Shown here piece by piece: positions 4,629-22,966 of a stretch of 64,000 bases of DNA. Made by a program: the position numbers and the translations under genes. This DNA comes from a virus. Position 1 is the stretch's first letter; the number at the start of each line of letters is the position of its first letter. The DNA lies in the IMG/VR virus record IMGVR_UViG_3300021420_000017, positions 82,651 through 146,650 of that record. One strand, given 5' to 3'. The notes beneath the pieces were generated by a model. That model did not search any database, was not told the origin of the DNA, and saw only the letters and a program-made list of their open reading frames with translations.

Positions 4629-5315
4629 ATGTCTGTTAGCAACGGATGGGAATCAAGCATGGAGCACGGCATCCGTTACGTTCACCACCAGGGCTACTCC
4701 GGTGCAACCGCTCAAGTCTTAGTGGAACCCCCCAAACTCACGGTGCTGGCGCACGTCTCCGGAAACAGCATCGACTGTCTGCATTGTCCGTTTTGTGGCA
4801 GTGGTGCTATAGTAGCGAGAAGTGACGGAACGATTGAATGTTCCTTTTGCACCTCTTGCTTTACTGTTCAGGTCCAGCCGCAGTTCCCGGCTTTCCCGAT
4901 GACGACCCAGGGCCAGCCCTACCCGTGGCCGGGCCAGCCTGATCCCGCCTCCGTGGTGGCTCCTGGGAGTGCTCCGATGGCTCCTGGTGACCCGCTCGGC
5001 GGAGGTATCGGGGGAGCCCCGGAAGACATCAACGCGGTTGATCCCAACGACCCGGATGCTGATGGGGCGGATGAGAGCGGGGACGATAGCGACGCTCCTC
5101 CCTGGCTCAAGGGCAAGAGTGGCGATTCCGATGCCGGAGACGATAAGAAGGCCCAGGTGGGGGGCAAGAGCGCTCCTCCATTCGTCAAGAAGAAGTCCTA
5201 TCTCACCGTCACCGGCGCGCAGTTGTCCGAGCAGGACTACATCCGCCACCTGGCCATCGCTCACGCCCAGGACAAGAGACGAGTTGCCAGCCTGGTGAAG
5301 GCGAGCCGCACGTGA
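4629..5315 (+). CDS. Zn-ribbon protein with acidic linker (228 aa)
   Basis: CPFCGS..CSFC motifs; tight gene packing. Confidence 0.7.
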   Translation: MSVSNGWESSMEHGIRYVHHQGYSGATAQVLVEPPKLTVLAHVSGNSIDCLHCPFCGSGAIVARSDGTIECSFCTSCFTVQVQPQFPAFPMTTQGQPYPWPGQPDPASVVAPGSAPMAPGDPLGGGIGGAPEDINAVDPNDPDADGADESGDDSDAPPWLKGKSGDSDAGDDKKAQVGGKSAPPFVKKKSYLTVTGAQLSEQDYIRHLAIAHAQDKRRVASLVKASRT

Positions 5316-5632
5316 GCGGCAGCATCACCATCAACGCAGCATTGGCGCAGGCGGGCGTCCCGGACGAGACATTTGCGATAGCCATCGGCCATCCCTGCAT
5401 GGGGGCGAAGTTCCACAGCCCTCGACCGTTGGTTACTCGGCGATTCTTTGATGTGGATTACGTATTCGTCAATGAGGTGTGGCTCTGTCCCACTTGTTAC
5501 GAAAACCTCAAAGTCCTCCTTCACTTAGCGGGCAAAGTCGAAGCATTGGAGTGGACCATTCTCCGCGAGTTCGGCAATCAGCTACGCGCACTGGGCATGA
5601 CCATCGCGCAGAACCGCAGGCAGGAAGACTGA
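5312..5632 (+). CDS. Hypothetical protein (106 aa) with HPC..CPTC possible Zn site
   Basis: GTGA overlap with the upstream stop and TGATG overlap with the portal start. Confidence 0.7.
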   Translation: MSGSITINAALAQAGVPDETFAIAIGHPCMGAKFHSPRPLVTRRFFDVDYVFVNEVWLCPTCYENLKVLLHLAGKVEALEWTILREFGNQLRALGMTIAQNRRQED

Positions 5633-8373
5633 TGGCGGACTTTGCAATCAACGACCGGCGAGGTAAGGGCACCGGTCGGAGCAATGACGACCTGTCGCAC
5701 TCGCGCCTGACCCGCAATGGAATGAATGTGCGCCGGGCCGTGGATGAGCAGGCGGCCAAGTCGAACATGTTCGGCGCTCCTCGGATGAACCGCGACAAAG
5801 AGACCCTCGATCACCTGAGCCGGGCCAAGATGTCGATGAGCCGCCGCGCCAGTCAGGGCACCGGGGTGAACAACGCGCCCAGTATGCAGATGGCTTCGGG
5901 TCGCCCACGCGACCCGATGTGGTACTGGAAGCAAAACAACATTCCGTTCAACTTCACTGAACCAGCCGAGATGCAACGGATTAGGGAGTTTTGCAATACT
6001 CCCGACGCGCCGGTGACAATGGCCGATGGCACCACCAAGCCGCTCGGGCAGATCGTAGCCGGGGACAAGGTCAAGGGCTGGGACTACCTCGTGCACGCCA
6101 CCAACCCGTGGGCCGGTGGCGGCTGGAGTTACGGCGGCAACGGGGGCAAGGTTCGTGAGTACGTCAGTGCCACTGTGCTAGCCACCAGCACCCGCACGGC
6201 TCCGTCGGTGGTCCGGCTGACGATGGCCTCCGGAGCGCAGATCACCTGCACTCCGGATCACCTGTGGGCCAATCCTTACTACGGCCAGCAGGTGCAGTAC
6301 AACGGCCCCTTCCCTCCCAACATGGCCAGCTCGACTGCGCTGATGAGCACCGAGTACGCCCCGGCTCAGGTGGGGACCGAACTGCTTAATGTCGGGGCCG
6401 CCACGATGGACAAGGTCATCTCGATCGAGGATCTGGGCCCTGGCACAGTGGTCTCGATGCAGACCACCACGGGCAACTACATCGTCTGGGGAATGGCTTC
6501 TAAAAACTGCCGTCTGCTCTATGTTACTCACCCCATCATTGCGGCATGCGTAGACATCTTCGCTAAGTTTCCGCTGCAAGGATTACACTTTGAATCGAAA
6601 GACGATCAGCTTACTGATTTCTATAGCGAACTATTCTTTGATCAGTTGCACTATGAAGACCACCTACTTGATATAGGTACTGAATACTGGAACTGCGGCG
6701 AGACGTTCTCTTTAGGGGCATGGAACGACACACTGGGTATCTGGGAGGGCGATCAGCTCATCAATCCGGATGACGTTGAGATTGAAAACGCGCTCTTCCT
6801 CAACGAGCCCCGCTTCCTTATGCGCCTGCCAGCGAGCCTGCGCAAGATCCTTACTACTCGAACTCCGCGTTATGCCTATGAGCAGATCGTGCGTAGCTTC
6901 CCCGAGCTGCTGCAGTATGTCGGCCAGGACGACCTCATGCCGGTCTCCAGCGTCATCCTCAAGCAGTTGCGGTTCAAGGCCGACCGGTTCAGCAACCGGG
7001 GCATCCCGATCCTCATGCGTGGCTTCCGGGCCATCATGCAGGAGGAAATGCTCAACAGCGCGCTGGACTCCATCGCCGACCGTCTCTATACCCCGCTCAT
7101 CCTGACCAAGTTGGGAGCCACGGCGGCTGACCTGGGCACCACGGTTCCCTGGATCCCGGACCAGGACGAGATGGAAGAGTTCAACGTCGCGTTGGATGCC
7201 GCTCTGGCGGCCGACTTCCGGGCCCTGACCTACCACTGGGCTATCGACATGCAGCCCGTCTTTGGCCGAGAGAATGTGCCTGATCTTTCCAACGACTTCG
7301 ATCGGCTCACCGAGCGGCTTCTGATGGTATTCGGACTAAGTCAGACAATGCTCACAGGAGCCTCAGCAGGGGAAACTTACGCCGCTGATGCCCTAAACAG
7401 GGATGTAGTAACACAACTCCTCAGTCATTATCAGCGCAGCCTTGGTCAGTTCTATACAGATCGAGCACTCATCGTCGCTGAGGCGCAGGAGCATTATGAC
7501 TACGAAGTGCGCGGGGGCAAGCGTTATCTGATTACCGAAGAGATCTATGAGATCGATGAGGAAAGCGGAGAGGAACGCATTGTCGAACAGCCGAAGCTCC
7601 TGGTCCCCGAACTCAAGTTCAAAATCCTCAACCTCACTGATGAGGATGCGGAACGGCAATTCATGGAATCACTGGCCGAGGCGGGTGTGCCCGTCCCCTA
7701 CCGTGCGCGTATCTCCACGACCGGCCTGGATTTCAACGAGATGGTCGAACAGCGGTCGAGGGAACAGGTCGCTCTAGCCGTCGCAGAGCAGGAGACGCGC
7801 AAGAAGACCTTCCTTGCACTGCGGGCCGCCGGGTTGCCCGTGCCCAGCGATCTGATGGATGACTTCAGCCCCAAGGCGATCCCCGCCGACGGTACCAATC
7901 CGCCACTGGGGTCCATGGGAGATGAGGTTATCCCGGGGCTCGGTCAGCAGCCACTTGGTCTTCCGGCTCTGTCGCCCACGCCGGACGATCTGGCTCAGGC
8001 TGATCCGAATGCTGATCCCAATGCGGTGCCCAGCGACCAGGACGCGAACATGGATGGCATTCCGGACTCCGAGCAGAATCCCGACCTGCAGCAACCCGGA
8101 GATGACGTGCCGCCTGAGTCGAATGAGGAGAAGGCCGACATGCCCAAGTCGGCCCAGCTCCAGAAGACCGCAGCGCTGCCTAAGTTCGGTATCAAGCAGA
8201 TCACGAAGGACTATTACGTCCCGATCGACAACTCGGAGGAAGAGTCAACCAGGGACCACCGGCCGGACGGGATGTTCGGGACACCGAAGCATGTGGGCCT
8301 GAGACGCCACCTCGCGCCCCTCATCCCGGACGACATCAAGTTGAGTCATCTAGCCCCGGACGGGGATGAGTAA
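5632..8373 (+). CDS. Portal protein containing a mini-intein
   Basis: ATG at 5632 overlaps the previous stop; helical portal-like body (HPIIAACVDIFAKFPL, GIPILMRGFRAIMQEEMLNS, FGLSQTMLTG); position in head module; acidic disordered C-terminus. Confidence 0.8.
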   Translation: MADFAINDRRGKGTGRSNDDLSHSRLTRNGMNVRRAVDEQAAKSNMFGAPRMNRDKETLDHLSRAKMSMSRRASQGTGVNNAPSMQMASGRPRDPMWYWKQNNIPFNFTEPAEMQRIREFCNTPDAPVTMADGTTKPLGQIVAGDKVKGWDYLVHATNPWAGGGWSYGGNGGKVREYVSATVLATSTRTAPSVVRLTMASGAQITCTPDHLWANPYYGQQVQYNGPFPPNMASSTALMSTEYAPAQVGTELLNVGAATMDKVISIEDLGPGTVVSMQTTTGNYIVWGMASKNCRLLYVTHPIIAACVDIFAKFPLQGLHFESKDDQLTDFYSELFFDQLHYEDHLLDIGTEYWNCGETFSLGAWNDTLGIWEGDQLINPDDVEIENALFLNEPRFLMRLPASLRKILTTRTPRYAYEQIVRSFPELLQYVGQDDLMPVSSVILKQLRFKADRFSNRGIPILMRGFRAIMQEEMLNSALDSIADRLYTPLILTKLGATAADLGTTVPWIPDQDEMEEFNVALDAALAADFRALTYHWAIDMQPVFGRENVPDLSNDFDRLTERLLMVFGLSQTMLTGASAGETYAADALNRDVVTQLLSHYQRSLGQFYTDRALIVAEAQEHYDYEVRGGKRYLITEEIYEIDEESGEERIVEQPKLLVPELKFKILNLTDEDAERQFMESLAEAGVPVPYRARISTTGLDFNEMVEQRSREQVALAVAEQETRKKTFLALRAAGLPVPSDLMDDFSPKAIPADGTNPPLGSMGDEVIPGLGQQPLGLPALSPTPDDLAQADPNADPNAVPSDQDANMDGIPDSEQNPDLQQPGDDVPPESNEEKADMPKSAQLQKTAALPKFGIKQITKDYYVPIDNSEEESTRDHRPDGMFGTPKHVGLRRHLAPLIPDDIKLSHLAPDGDE
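5992..6507 (+). mobile_element. Mini-intein (172 aa) in portal, no endonuclease domain
   Basis: Starts CNTPDAPVTMADGTTKPLGQIVAGDKV (block A), has TCTPDHLW (block B), ends VVSMQTTTGNYIVWGMASKN followed by Cys+1. Confidence 0.9.
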
Positions 8374-19211: not shown

Positions 19212-20186
19212 ATGACCACCACGATGGTCCCCCAGGGCATCAAGCCGCCGATGTCGTCTGACGACTATGTGAGCGCGATCTTGGCCCGCCACGAGGGCAA
19301 GAAGGCCTCCTCGTCCAGCAAGCTGACCGCCATCGCGCGAGTGCTCGCTGATGAGGTCAGCGGCTTCAAGCGCCTGGGCGTCGGCATGATCGGCCCGATC
19401 CAGCTCAAGCTGCGCTACCAGGGCATCACCCGCAACGTGCTGGTCGAGGACCCGGTGACCCCGGGCACCCCGGTCGAGTACGACGTGTGGGACGACCTGG
19501 GCCAGGCGTACGTGCTCTCGGGCCACGACGGCGAAGTCAATATCACGATCTTCGAAGGCAAGCGTGTGCGGGTCGACTTCTTCCGGATCGCGGCTCAGGC
19601 CCAGATCCGCAAGGAAGACCTGATGTACCTGCGCATCAACGCCGTCGAGCAGGCCCAGGACGAGACCAAGCAGTCGATCCTCAAGCAGGAGGACTCCCGG
19701 CTGATGGTCGTGCTCCAGGGCGCGCTGAACGACTACAGCACCCGCCCGGATCACACGATCACCCCCAACCACACCATCACCGAGACCTCGGGTTACTTCA
19801 CCCCGACCTCGCTGTACACGGCGGTGGCCCAGACCGACATGCACGAGCTGGTCGCCAGCCGCATGCTGGTCAACCCCTATGACTACCGGGACTTCTTCCG
19901 GTGGGACATCAACACGACTGGTTGGGCCTTCAAGGACCGGGTCGTCGCGGGTGAGACCATCACCAGCTTCGGTGAGTTCCAGTTCCAGCGCTCGATCATG
20001 GTTCCGCAGAAGACCATGTACCTGCTGCCCGAGCCGAACTTCCTCGGTGTCTTCCCCGTCCTCTACAGCCTGGACGTTGAAGAGAACCACGTGGTGGATC
20101 GCTTCATGCGGGGATGGGTGTTCGATGAGATGGTTGCACAAATTGTGCTAAATCCTCGTGGAATAGCAGCAGTCGTAAAGCCCTAA
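19212..20186 (+). CDS. Major capsid protein (HK97 fold, 324 aa)
   Basis: AGGAG RBS; very high GC3; position after protease/decoration; GPIQLKLRYQGITRNVLVED and LNPRG motifs recall Bxz1-type MCPs (recalled, not searched); followed by a terminator. Confidence 0.88.
   Translation: MTTTMVPQGIKPPMSSDDYVSAILARHEGKKASSSSKLTAIARVLADEVSGFKRLGVGMIGPIQLKLRYQGITRNVLVEDPVTPGTPVEYDVWDDLGQAYVLSGHDGEVNITIFEGKRVRVDFFRIAAQAQIRKEDLMYLRINAVEQAQDETKQSILKQEDSRLMVVLQGALNDYSTRPDHTITPNHTITETSGYFTPTSLYTAVAQTDMHELVASRMLVNPYDYRDFFRWDINTTGWAFKDRVVAGETITSFGEFQFQRSIMVPQKTMYLLPEPNFLGVFPVLYSLDVEENHVVDRFMRGWVFDEMVAQIVLNPRGIAAVVKP
20069..20134 (+). repeat. 66-bp inverted repeat, left copy (inside MCP coding sequence)
   Basis: CCTGGACGTTGAAGAG...TTCGATGAGATGGT is the exact reverse complement of 22458-22523. 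Confidence 0.97.
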
Positions 20187-20225
20187 ACTACCATCTCATG
20201 AAATCGTAGCACAGTAAGATACAGA

Positions 20226-20266
20226 CAACAAGAGCCCCACGCCATCGCGGCGTGGGGCTCTTGTTG
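20226..20266. terminator. Bidirectional intrinsic terminator
   Basis: 18-bp perfect stem CAACAAGAGCCCCACGCC / GGCGTGGGGCTCTTGTTG between convergent genes. Confidence 0.85.
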
Positions 20267-20283
20267 TTGCGTCGATCCATAGG

Positions 20284-20727
20284 CTATCTCGTCACGTATT
20301 CGCAGTCCTTCTCGGTGAAGTCGCTGCGCAGTCCGGCAAGATACTCGCCCAGGAAATATGTAGCGGAATCATGAGTCTTGTCTTGCTCGACTAGTTTTTC
20401 CAACTCTTCCAGGATCTGGGTGGCCGTACTGGAGGTCAGAACCAACAACCTGACCCCAGTTGAGGCGAACCACTCCCAAGACAACAAGTCGAATGTCGTT
20501 GGCTGCCGTTCTTCGTCTACGACATCGAGAGCCAATCCCGACTCTGGAATCCAGAGTGAGGGAGAATAGGATCCGCGCACGCTAAAAGTTCGATCAATCC
20601 AACTCACAGGCGCATTTCGGTAAGTATCCACCTCATGCTGCGCGAGTGTGCATGCTTGAATCCAATCGCGAGGGTCGGTCAGCGTACTGATTACGTGAGT
20701 CGGATAATACTGTTGGTCCTTGATCAT
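20284..20727 (-). CDS. Degenerate PD-(D/E)XK-fold protein (147 aa), probably an inactive paralogue of the adjacent nuclease
   Basis: YSPSLWIPESGLALDVV aligns with YDPDFWLPQYEVAVETK of the neighbour; ATGA overlap with the upstream stop. Confidence 0.55.
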   Translation of the reverse strand: MIKDQQYYPTHVISTLTDPRDWIQACTLAQHEVDTYRNAPVSWIDRTFSVRGSYSPSLWIPESGLALDVVDEERQPTTFDLLSWEWFASTGVRLLVLTSSTATQILEELEKLVEQDKTHDSATYFLGEYLAGLRSDFTEKDCEYVTR

Positions 20728-21416
20728 CGGTTACGCTCCTGAGCTATAAGTGATTGAATAGACTCGCTGAAGTTTTCTCCTGATAGTTTCCGTAAGTCTT
20801 CTTTGAATAAGACGACCAGTAAACGACCAGTTGCTCTATAGGCAGCCCATTGAGCGTGCATGTTGGCTCGTGGTACTCCCTTAGTCTCTACCGCTACCTC
20901 ATACTGAGGGAGCCAAAAGTCGGGATCGTAGTTAGACAGATCGTTGGATTTATCCCAGGGAATCAGGAAGCGCTCATCGAATCGCTCTATTCGAACTTTG
21001 GATATTTTGGCTAGTCCCCAAAATAGCGCCTCGTAGGAAGACTGAAGCACGATAACATGCTCAGTCTGATCATCGATGGTCTTGATGTTTTGGTGCACTT
21101 TCAGTCCACGTCGAGCACATGCCTGATTGTGGAACTGCCGATGAGAAGAGGCTCGGTGTTCGAACTCAATGCCACACCACCCACACTTTGAGGTGGTCCA
21201 TTTCGATTCGTCTCGCTGGCGCCTGACCGAGGCCGCTCTCCGGCATTCATGACTGTGGTAGAGACGATTGGCCGCAGAGACAGGTTTGTCGCAGGCGGGG
21301 TTGGCGCATTTGGGTCGAGGTTGATCTACCCGGCGCGCGCGATTGTTTCCTCCGTGATGATTCCTAGAGATCTGGGGGACGGGTAGTGGCTTAGCTGCCC
21401 AGTTGTCGTCACTCAT
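20724..21416 (-). CDS. Zn-finger plus PD-(D/E)XK endonuclease (230 aa)
   Basis: CANPAC..HSHEC and CGWC..HNQAC; SSYE..YDPDFWLP..VETKG matches the T7 endonuclease I/TnsA-like catalytic pattern. Confidence 0.8.
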   Translation of the reverse strand: MSDDNWAAKPLPVPQISRNHHGGNNRARRVDQPRPKCANPACDKPVSAANRLYHSHECRRAASVRRQRDESKWTTSKCGWCGIEFEHRASSHRQFHNQACARRGLKVHQNIKTIDDQTEHVIVLQSSYEALFWGLAKISKVRIERFDERFLIPWDKSNDLSNYDPDFWLPQYEVAVETKGVPRANMHAQWAAYRATGRLLVVLFKEDLRKLSGENFSESIQSLIAQERNR

Positions 21417-22345
21417 GCTCTGGGCTTCCTTCCAGGAGAGCGAACTTGGCGTCCTTCAGCCACGAGCCACCCACGCACCGTCTGATAGGACCTCCCTAGG
21501 GTGTCGCAGACATCGGAAAGGGTCATACCCATGTCGAAATAGCGAACTGCCTCAGCAGCTTGTTCGCGGTCGCGGAGATAAATCCCTCCCTCGGTAGTGA
21601 TTCCACGTTCTTCAATAATCTTGCGCACGGCATCTTGGGAGATATTAAGTTCTTTAGCAACTTCTACTATAGTATTACCTTTAAGGTACGACTCGGCGAT
21701 CTCGTCCGATCTATCTGGTTTAAGACGAGCAGGGCGCTCCTTGTTGATGGGGGTCAGCCCTAGCTCTCGTAGCCATATCTCTGCGGTTCCGTAGTGGATT
21801 CCCAGTTGGGTCGCGATATCGAAGGCAGCTATCCCCGCATGATGAAGAGCGATGACGTTGGGGAGAAGGGAGGGCTTTTTCCCGATTTTGCGTCCTCCGA
21901 CTTGGAACCGGAACCCCTCCTTGGCGAGCCACCGACTGACGGAGTCCGGGGTAAATCCGAATCGATCCGCGATGGACTCGCGAGATTCCCCTGCCCGAGC
22001 GGCCTTGAGCATTGTTGGAATGGCATCCTCACGACGGCGTTGATCCTCGGAGTAAGCCGTGAGGCCTTCTTGCCTGAGCCAACGACTCAGAGTCGTGTAG
22101 GGCACGTTGATCTCGTCTGCGATCTCGGGTGCAGTCCTCTTCTTCGCAATGAGAGTTTGGATCAGCGGGAGATGCTGGCGCTTAGCGCTGCGCTTGGCCG
22201 CAGTGAGAGACAGACCCGCCTCTTTGAGGAGTATTCTGACACGATATGCCGGAATCTCTGCGGAGACTGAGATCTCTTCGGCGTTCGCCCCTTGGTGGTG
22301 CGCTCTGACGATGTAGCTCAGGAGATCAGGGCTGATAGGATCCAC
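21413..22345 (-). CDS. Six-repeat helix-turn-helix DNA-binding protein (about 310 aa)
   Basis: Six HTH units of about 48 aa (e.g. EIADEINVPYTTLSRWLRQEG, SIADRFGFTPDSVSRWLAKEG) with basic linkers; GTG 22345 has AGGAAGG 7 nt upstream (ORF track starts at TTG 22381). Confidence 0.8.
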   Translation of the reverse strand: MDPISPDLLSYIVRAHHQGANAEEISVSAEIPAYRVRILLKEAGLSLTAAKRSAKRQHLPLIQTLIAKKRTAPEIADEINVPYTTLSRWLRQEGLTAYSEDQRRREDAIPTMLKAARAGESRESIADRFGFTPDSVSRWLAKEGFRFQVGGRKIGKKPSLLPNVIALHHAGIAAFDIATQLGIHYGTAEIWLRELGLTPINKERPARLKPDRSDEIAESYLKGNTIVEVAKELNISQDAVRKIIEERGITTEGGIYLRDREQAAEAVRYFDMGMTLSDVCDTLGRSYQTVRGWLVAEGRQVRSPGRKPRA

Positions 22346-22385
22346 AATGAAGCCTTCCTGTTGGTGCTGGTGTCTCGACAACCCC

Positions 22386-22415
22386 AGTCTTCAGGAAGGT
22401 TTCCCTATTTGTCAA
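22386..22415 (-). promoter_or_regulatory. Possible host sigma70-type promoter for the HTH/nuclease operon
   Basis: Perfect TTGACA (22415-22410); -10 only AAGACT at an 18-nt spacer. Confidence 0.35.
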
Positions 22416-22457
22416 ATCGAGTAGGAACTCATCCCACTGTTAATAGCGATTCGGAAG

Positions 22458-22523
22458 ACCATCTCATCGAACACCCATCCCCGCATGAAGCGATCCACCA
22501 CGTGGTTCTCTTCAACGTCCAGG
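22458..22523 (-). repeat. 66-bp inverted repeat, right copy (intergenic copy of MCP sequence)
   Basis: Exact reverse complement of 20069-20134; identity stops abruptly at both ends. Confidence 0.97.
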
Positions 22524-22549: not shown

Positions 22550-22867
22550 ATGAAACCGACGTTGAGCCCCGACGGCGACTGGAAGGAGGGAGAGGAGTTC
22601 GACTACCCCGACGACAACACCTCGGCTGACTGCGGAGGCTGCGATCAGCACTGGCAAGTGCATGATCACATGAAGTGGATCGCTGACGGCTGCGCGACAC
22701 TGAAGGATGTCATCGCGCATGTGGAGGCCTTCGCGGCTCACCTATGGGCGCGCAAGGAGGCTGGCTACGAGCTTGCGGATCTGGTGGACAACGGTCACAT
22801 CATCTACAAGCAGTTCGAGGATGATCCCCGGGAAGAGCAGTTTCGGGTCGAGCGCAGCGCTAGCTGA
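22550..22867 (+). CDS. Hypothetical acidic protein (105 aa)
   Basis: AAGGAG upstream; high GC3; followed by a terminator. Confidence 0.65.
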   Translation: MKPTLSPDGDWKEGEEFDYPDDNTSADCGGCDQHWQVHDHMKWIADGCATLKDVIAHVEAFAAHLWARKEAGYELADLVDNGHIIYKQFEDDPREEQFRVERSAS

Positions 22868-22923: not shown

Positions 22924-22966
22924 CCAAGACCGGGACCTCTCCTTCGCGGAGGGGTCCCGGTCTTGG
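22924..22966 (+). terminator. Intrinsic terminator
   Basis: Stem CCAAGACCGGGACCTCTCC / GGAGGGGTCCCGGTCTTGG followed by TTTG. Confidence 0.75.

Follow-up and report, generated by a model that had tools for sequence, protein, structure and literature searches.

A probable homing-endonuclease cassette, split into three antisense genes, beside the major capsid gene of a soil actinophage related to Rhodococcus phage E3

The viral DNA analysed here, a stretch of 64,000 nucleotides (nt) that we call the window, is the second half of the 146.6-kb IMG/VR virus record IMGVR_UViG_3300021420_000017. Between its major capsid gene and a late gene (22550-22867, plus strand) lies a cassette of three minus-strand genes, g1, g2 and g3, enclosed by the two arms of a 66-nt inverted repeat, one of which is situated inside the capsid gene itself (Table 1). 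Its structural genes place the virus among the relatives of Rhodococcus phage E3. The product of the capsid gene matches the PHROG 2522 major head protein with an E value of 1e-94, and a megablast comparison of the window with phage records returned E3 alone, with 76% DNA identity over part of the major capsid gene gp79.

Table 1. Features of the cassette and its insertion site, in window coordinates.
Feature	Coordinates	Strand	Remarks
Major capsid gene, 324 amino acids (aa)	19212-20186	+	Insertion landmark; probable (predicted) target of the nuclease
Left arm of the repeat, 66 nt	20069-20134	+	Inside the capsid open reading frame; encodes LDVEENHVVDRFMRGWVFDEMV
Recoded capsid tail, …AQIVLNPRGIAAVVKP*	20135-20186	+	Native-like protein, AT-rich codons
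ACCATCTCAT, 10 nt	20190-20199		Repeats the inner end of the left arm in inverted orientation
Hairpin, 20-pair stem	20225-20267		Between the convergent capsid gene and g3
g3, 147-aa orphan	20284-20727	-	Degenerate PD-(D/E)xK-like paralogue of the nuclease core
g2, 230-aa nuclease	20724-21416	-	Two FCS-type zinc fingers and a PD-(D/E)xK domain
g1, 310 aa, six helix-turn-helix units	21413-22345	-	Predicted DNA-binding module detached from the nuclease
Operon leader and upstream region	22346-22457	-	Contains the "tail B" stretch, 22407-22457
Right arm of the repeat, 66 nt	22458-22523	-	113-178 nt upstream of the g1 start

An earlier note on this DNA had described the cassette as three open reading frames (ORFs) joined by ATGA overlaps and AT-richer than their flanks, and both points hold. 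The overlaps are read at 20724-20727 and 21413-21416, and GC content is 0.49-0.56 inside the cassette versus 0.62-0.66 outside. At third codon positions the GC content (GC3) is 0.59 in g1, 0.52 in g2 and 0.60 in g3, compared with 0.77-0.83 in the neighbouring genes and about 0.9 (0.93) in the capsid gene. The start of g1 is a GTG preceded by AGGAAGG, and independent gene calls likewise give a protein of 310 aa. The hairpin downstream of g3, which the same note had called a bidirectional terminator, is present as a structure, but the scan found it terminator-like on the minus strand only and the U-tracts are weak on both strands; that it terminates both the capsid gene and g3 is nonetheless plausible. 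No promoter was detected upstream of the operon by a sigma-70-like scan, which does not cover actinobacterial or phage late promoters, and RNA structure upstream of g1 is not significant (z = -1.3).

The catalytic component of this operon is the product of g2, which conservation across its family and a predicted fold together show to be a PD-(D/E)xK nuclease with a complete catalytic set and zinc fingers. All three motifs from which a nuclease of this class had first been suspected (SSYE, YDPDFWLP and VETKG) are found. In an alignment and profile built from g2 and nine homologues (10 members), E129, D166 (in PDF), E177 and K179 are invariant, as are the cysteine pairs of both zinc fingers. These two fingers, of the C2(C/H)C, FCS type, occupy approximately residues 37-100, and the nuclease domain follows at approximately 106-230. 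Searched against Pfam, g2 has no match at E ≤ 1, and no Pfam model reaches threshold for the family.

Judged by sequence, the nearest relative of g2 is T7 endonuclease I, the likeness already proposed for it. The family profile matches 1m0d in the PDB with an E value of 4.9e-5 over 44 residues, through the PDF…ExKG…DD block, and 3 of the 10 family members have sub-threshold matches to Phage_endo_I (PF05367), the best with an E value of 0.013. T7 endonuclease I (gene 3, PF05367) shares with g2 the block YxPDF(W/L)LP…VE(T/x)KG…DD and the E/D/ExK set. It is a small, structure-specific junction resolvase encoded by a core gene and without sequence-reading domains, whereas the g2 family lies below threshold in Pfam, carries zinc fingers and helix-turn-helix (HTH) arrays and is sporadic in its distribution.

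The AlphaFold2 (AF2) model of g2 has a mean predicted local distance difference test (pLDDT) score of 77 and places a restriction-endonuclease-like domain, with the alpha-beta-beta-beta-alpha-beta core, at residues 106-230. Its fold matches are Vsr (Z score 8.6, root mean square deviation (rmsd) 3.1, 100 residues aligned), the catalytic domain of I-Bth0305I (7.8), TnsA (7.7), VRR-NUC (7.6), Bax1 (7.1) and Hjc (5.1). All of these came from the wider structure search; Foldseek of the model against the PDB gave nothing at E ≤ 0.001. The Foldseek alignment of the g2 monomer model to 1fzr/1m0d is poor (rmsd 21), as expected for a domain-swapped dimer. I-Bth0305I and I-Ssp6803I, of the EDxHD/Vsr-like group, are cases in which a restriction-endonuclease-like fold is used for homing, as is proposed here for g2. 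The model aligns with the former over 91 residues at an rmsd of 4.0, and with the latter at a Z score of 4.7. Both of these enzymes are intron-encoded, their active-site motifs and DNA-binding parts differ from those of g2, and they have no detectable sequence relation to it.

The zinc-finger part of g2 matches PHROG 1271, annotated as an HNH endonuclease, with an E value of 5.7e-8, and there are weak matches to phage proteins annotated as Holliday junction resolvases. One such protein is gp103 of EasyJones, a Mycobacterium phage of cluster C (MZ856343.1, 50335-50787; 29% identity, E = 0.009). Apart from the capsid match, it is the only match in 50,697 phage records, and the g2 family is thus almost absent from isolated phages.

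The product of g1 is an array of six HTH units, as had been read from the sequence. Each is about 42 aa long, they start at residues 8, 59, 109, 161, 213 and 263, and basic linkers of 8-10 aa separate them; no catalytic domain is found in the protein. Pfam recognises HTH_23 at five stretches and HTH_28 at four, and the units match HTH arrays in PHROG families that carry the annotation HNH endonuclease. The suggestion that g1 is a separable specificity subunit is strengthened by its relatives, in which an HTH array and the nuclease form one polypeptide with the array at the N-terminus: in loci L008 and L024 these fused arrays share 30-31% identity with g1 (E = 2e-18 and 2e-14, respectively). 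In L008 the fused protein (P0004) is 400 aa long, and its N-terminal part is 30% identical to g1. Because g1 is homologous to these fused arrays, g1 and g2 together represent a split version of one protein. A further idea, that the six units read the whole 66 bp of the repeat, is speculative; in relatives the copied capsid segment (see below) measures about 30-45 nt and the HTH units are fewer, contrary to the arithmetic of 6 x 11 bp = 66 bp.

The third gene, g3, had been called a dead paralogue of the nuclease. Its core aligns with that of g2 and reads YSPSLWIP..LDVV, with PD changed to PS and ExK to DVV, and the catalytic D, E and K are all replaced (D to S, E to D, K to V). The paralogy finds moderate support in four individually weak lines: a BLASTP match between g3 and g2 (E = 3e-4, as a single comparison), an hhalign match of g3 to the family profile (80% probability, E = 1.4e-5, 65 columns), tblastn matches to the nuclease domains of loci L011 and L016 (E = 1e-4 to 5e-4), and leads in the ESM Atlas to clusters of DUF559/Vsr-like endonucleases. 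A search for homologues of g3 found none, leaving it an orphan, and its single-sequence AF2 model is unusable (pLDDT 34). The four lines agree in making g3 a putative degenerate protein of the nuclease fold. It is not a recent duplicate of g2, because g2 is no nearer to it than are the nuclease domains of other lineages. We estimate that a 147-codon frame would arise in DNA of 52% GC without selection about 1 time in 1000, which is unlikely, and because the frame is open and coupled through ATGA to g2, g3 appears to be still under selection.

Comparable pairs are known from other nuclease systems. In XPF-ERCC1, in Mus81-Eme1 and in heterodimeric restriction enzymes such as R.BspD6I, a dead paralogue is paired with, or encoded beside, an active nuclease of the same fold, as g3 stands beside g2, and the small subunit of R.BspD6I is itself a weak fold match to g2 (Z score 4.7). 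Unlike those proteins, g3 is an orphan found in this phage only, and its pairing with g2 is putative. The active sites of T7 endonuclease I are composed from both subunits; if g2 were a dimer of this kind, a dead partner would therefore kill one or both sites. A prediction of the complex between g2 (residues 108-230, with alignment) and g3 (alone) scored 0.00, a value that, with the fold of g3 uncertain, weighs neither for nor against a pairing. The formation of an inactive or half-active dimer is speculative, and so are the nickase and inhibitor roles suggested earlier for the pair.

The behaviour of g2 as a family can be read from two sets of loci, one seeded with the capsid protein, which comprises 59 E3-like loci with enough downstream sequence to evaluate, and a second seeded with the nuclease. 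The nuclease is present in 12 of the 59 capsid-seeded loci and absent from 47, and where it is present it always lies directly after the capsid gene, on the same strand. In the nuclease-seeded set, every g2 homologue with a readable neighbourhood is directly downstream of an E3-like major capsid gene and co-directional with it. Rhodococcus phage E3 itself lacks the nuclease. The GC3 of the nuclease gene is lower than that of the capsid gene in all 15 loci compared (0.52 versus 0.93 in the window), and the identity between nuclease domains, 31-73%, is uncorrelated with the identity between the corresponding capsid proteins, 70-97% (Spearman 0.15, p = 0.13, 105 pairs). Without exception the nuclease domain stands at the C-terminus, behind 0-360 aa of variable HTH and zinc-finger modules, usually with 1-4 HTH units in the same polypeptide; these modules also occur in PHROG families annotated as HNH endonucleases. 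In a collection of 1.84 billion representatives the clusters that belong to the family number at least 94 with a cut-off of E ≤ 1e-30 and 292 with one of E ≤ 1e-10, and a literature search found no paper describing it.

A fixed site next to an essential gene, patchy presence, foreign composition, a phylogeny decoupled from that of the neighbouring gene and a modular design are, in combination, the hallmarks of a homing endonuclease gene of the free-standing type. In phages, genes of this kind are known to gather close to those for the capsid and other essential functions (PMC10448857). The loci compared show that the g2 family behaves like a mobile element whose site is the 3′ end of the capsid gene, and the earlier description of g2 as a homing-type nuclease is upheld by the post-capsid position, the presence in 12 of 59 loci, the foreign codon usage and the decoupling from the capsid phylogeny. 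By contrast, the idea of the three genes as a conserved trio fails: they co-occur in this window only, and all 26 of the other nuclease loci carry a single nuclease gene. The window is also the only one of these 27 loci in which the cassette is antisense to the capsid gene. As the trio is found nowhere else, it is a lineage-specific split and not a conserved three-subunit system.

Among the closest known elements are the free-standing T4 Seg and Mob genes, together with the T5orf172 and HNH homing endonuclease genes of ICP1 and other phages, which have in common with the cassette an intergenic position beside a conserved essential gene, sporadic occurrence among close relatives, modularity and a co-converted or recoded flank. 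The cassette differs from them in its catalytic domain, which is PD-(D/E)xK and not GIY-YIG, HNH or T5orf172, and in being split into reader and cutter genes plus a dead paralogue, inverted, and flanked by 66-nt repeats.

Several loci of the family display further features around the same site. In L061 the nuclease frame is broken into two ORFs (5147-6160 and 6164-6409), probably a decaying copy. In L018, L029, L031, L007 and L035, the first approximately 60 nt after the capsid stop hold a GC-rich hairpin ahead of short-form nuclease genes, and the 3′ arm of this hairpin contains the likely Shine-Dalgarno sequence (…GAGGGGG/AAGGGG…) a few bases before the ATG. This placement of the Shine-Dalgarno sequence points to a nuclease whose translation is masked on the late transcript. 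In L008, L009, L013 and L014, independent assemblies break in or just after the capsid 3′ end, and the contigs end 170-400 nt upstream of the nuclease; inverted copies of the capsid segment, or mixed populations with and without the cassette, could be responsible.

The inverted repeat that encloses the cassette is real. Its two arms are 100% complementary over 66 nt and are the two copies in the genome; the depth of the 66-nt unitig is 34, as against about 17 in its flanks, and an assembly with k = 141, exceeding the repeat length, spans both arms in a 146-kb contig. The ENA contig shows 100% identity over 10.7 kb and hence is no independent assembly. At the inner boundary of the left arm the codon usage of the capsid gene changes abruptly: its GC3 falls from about 0.9 to 0.30 in a 60-nt block beginning at 20112, which takes in the last part of the arm and the first part of the tail. 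The tail of the encoded protein matches those of relatives, such as the …CQLVLNPRGIAAVTKP* of L018. Since the tail is native-like and yet recoded from the arm boundary, the functional capsid tail is part of the foreign block. Just beyond the capsid stop, the motif ACCATCTCAT (10 of 12 at +3 after the stop) necessarily repeats the inner end of the right arm as well, there in direct orientation, and no such short inverted motif was seen at this position in cassette-less loci.

The right arm has counterparts in the relatives. Of 25 loci that carry the nuclease, 6 (L008, L024, L048, L061, L063 and L086, with weaker cases in L043 and L032) have this capsid segment a second time, inverted and partly decayed, in the short region that separates the nuclease gene from the capsid stop; none of 57 loci without the nuclease does. 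The copied core extends from about -85 to -45 relative to the capsid stop, the right arm covers it from about -85 to -52, and in L008 the copy is situated about 80-110 nt before the nuclease. Several of the copies end where the arm in the window does, at …GAGATGGT, 52 nt before the stop. Because they share derived changes (TTATGG, GTAGAG), the copies were inherited with the cassette. Some of them contain patches that are again identical to the resident capsid gene (L048, 25 nt; L061, 17 nt), a pattern that points to occasional gene conversion. Since the pseudo-copy adjoins the 5′ end of the nuclease gene or operon in the relatives and in the window alike, the right arm can be read as a pseudo-target borne by the cassette and homogenised over 66 nt.

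Two of these loci are informative in their own right. In L048 the capsid gene from -74 to -2 and the stretch from +79 to +148 after the stop form a near-complete, 70-nt inverted pseudo-copy that includes the tail, making a large imperfect palindrome around the terminator, with 100% identity to the resident gene over the last 25 nt of the pseudo-copy. Direct second copies of the capsid tail occur downstream of the capsid stop in L014, where the copy follows the nuclease gene, and in L025. In L014 the last 32 nt of the capsid gene (within 1-75) are repeated at 980-1011 with 91% identity and synonymous differences only, and the native terminator comes after the second copy, which looks like the displaced original tail behind an inserted cassette that had brought its own.

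Bringing these lines together, we consider the three genes, with a probability of roughly 0.68, to be a free-standing homing-endonuclease cassette that is at home in E3-like actinophages, at the 3′ end of their major capsid gene. In this scheme g2 would be the catalytic subunit, its PD-(D/E)xK domain preceded by the two FCS-type zinc fingers; g1 would be the sequence-reading module, which here has become a separate but translationally coupled protein; and g3 would be a catalytically dead, diverged copy of the core, probably acting as a non-catalytic partner or as a brake. The target would be the highly conserved capsid segment that reads …GGNTGGGTNTTCGAYGARATGGT… / …TGGGTNTTCGAYGARATGGT… in phages without the cassette, and the cut would fall near the 3′ edge of this segment, about 52 nt before the capsid stop. 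Repair from a cassette-bearing genome would then copy the cassette together with the recoded capsid tail, and either this tail or the insertion itself would protect the carrier genome. The right arm would be a cassette-borne pseudo-target recently gene-converted to identity with the resident capsid gene.

Two readings of this arm are the most likely: an operator through which the cassette regulates itself, or a scar left by repair. I-TevI autorepresses its gene via an operator that resembles its homing site, and the cassette likewise has a target-like sequence just upstream of the endonuclease gene. It differs in that this sequence is a pseudo-copy, in inverted orientation, of 30-70 nt from the target gene, and its operator role is putative. 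For a repair scar, one option is fold-back priming at the terminator hairpin; a further option is that the right arm acts as an RNA pairing partner of the capsid message. A fuller version of the homing scheme, in which the pseudo-target serves as an operator and also as an inverted homology arm with which, together with the resident copy, the cassette could sit or flip in either orientation, g1 reads both copies, and g3 with g2 forms a nickase or a restrained nuclease, is possible, if doubtful.

Several observations weigh against this interpretation. The three-gene form is unique to this genome, and as an antisense operon with no recognisable promoter it could be silent. Capsid genes are usually high in GC3, so that part of the gap between capsid and nuclease genes would be expected anyway. 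The predicted target site derives from conservation and breakpoints alone. Both arms are intact, and if the arm is the recognition site, escape from self-cutting would have to come through the changed tail. As an orphan, g3 has a role, and even a fold, that are assigned from weak similarity. Finally, the homing model leaves the origin of the inversion and of the 66-nt duplication unexplained.

A different mechanism would be a programmed invertible segment. A flip between the arms would switch the capsid C-terminus from the present tail (tail A) to an alternative one and would turn the cassette from silent antisense genes to genes co-transcribed with the strong late capsid message. The repeat is perfect, one of its arms is in an ORF, and a flip would bring the cassette into line with all of its relatives. 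Read from the right arm inward, the capsid frame continues as …DEMVFRIAINSGMSSYSI* (tail B) and stays open for 16 more codons. However, tail B lacks LNPRGIA, a motif near-universal among the relatives compared, and tails A and B have no DNA similarity above shuffles, so that a flipped genome, as far as its sequence can be read, would probably make a defective capsid protein. A serine invertase (PF00239) was not found in the 146.6-kb genome by a search that was positive in 12 of 14 control genomes, and all repeat-resolving assemblies, which come from the same data or sample, have one orientation. In the relatives, moreover, the inverted copy flanks only the tail and terminator, and a flip there would destroy the capsid gene. 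The invertible segments of Mu (G/Gin) and P1 (C/Cin) also have inverted repeats inside a structural gene, with inversion swapping the C-terminal coding part; the cassette differs from them in having no invertase gene, in an alternative C-terminus without the capsid motif, and in encoding a nuclease and not structural exons. We therefore give programmed inversion a low probability, while noting that the repeat does make the segment invertible by homologous recombination, as a by-product.

About equally improbable is a domesticated or decaying element that no longer homes, with g1 serving mainly as a regulator that binds the capsid segment and its inverted copy, and g3 a relic of an older nuclease. 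The DNA-binding domains of homing endonucleases have been co-opted as stand-alone regulators, CapR being an example (PMC10448857), and this precedent, the unique split form, the antisense orientation and the failure to find a promoter would all suit such a history. It would also accommodate the greater nearness of g3 to nuclease domains of other lineages than to g2, and the broken nuclease ORF of L061 indicates that decay does occur at this site. Against loss of function, g2 retains all of its catalytic residues and both zinc fingers, and all three frames are intact and ATGA-coupled, the 147-codon frame of g3 being unlikely without selection.

The kinship with T7 endonuclease I raises the prospect that g2 is instead a housekeeping junction resolvase, an equivalent of T7 gene 3 that debranches DNA before packaging, with g1 as a general DNA-binding helper and a site that merely reflects late expression. 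T7 endonuclease I being the nearest enzyme by sequence, the weak matches to Holliday junction resolvases and the co-direction of the relatives with the late genes fit this proposal. A housekeeping function is difficult to reconcile with the absence of the nuclease from 47 of 59 related loci and from E3, with sequence-specific HTH and zinc-finger modules fused to it in variable number, and with its foreign codon usage, its phylogeny decoupled from that of the capsid and the target-gene scars around it, and we think it very unlikely. A Tn7-like transposon with a TnsA-type nuclease was considered and rejected: there is the fold match to TnsA, but the cassette comprises three genes without a transposase at a fixed site, and the island ends carry no terminal repeat (score 7 versus a shuffle mean of 6.6). 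Lastly, an assembly artefact, with the repeat and the reversed cassette arising from a mis-join at the repeat, would account for short-k contigs that break exactly at the arms, but it is almost certainly wrong given the doubled unitig depth and a k = 141 assembly that crosses both arms, with the inner sequence continuous with both.

Downstream of the cassette, the late gene at 22550-22867 begins directly after the right arm, which its ribosome-binding site abuts. Its 105-aa product belongs to no PHROG family, and its sole Pfam match is a weak one to zf-DNL (E = 0.003). It is followed by a second strong, terminator-like hairpin (22924-22966) with 19-nt arms that are 95% complementary and a 5-nt loop.

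The cassette is best filed as a catalytic lineage without a Pfam model at threshold, in a unique split, inverted and repeat-flanked form of a free-standing homing-type nuclease. Should the enzyme indeed home, the few homing-endonuclease families would be joined by a T7-endonuclease-I-like lineage. The six-HTH reader with its separate cutter resembles a ready-made two-component nuclease for a long site, which bears on how modules are swapped in nature and on the building of tools. The recurring inverted pseudo-target and the dead paralogue each raise a testable question of self-regulation. For the phages themselves, the cassette would be a selfish element that edits the end of the major capsid gene while its recoded tail keeps that essential gene working.

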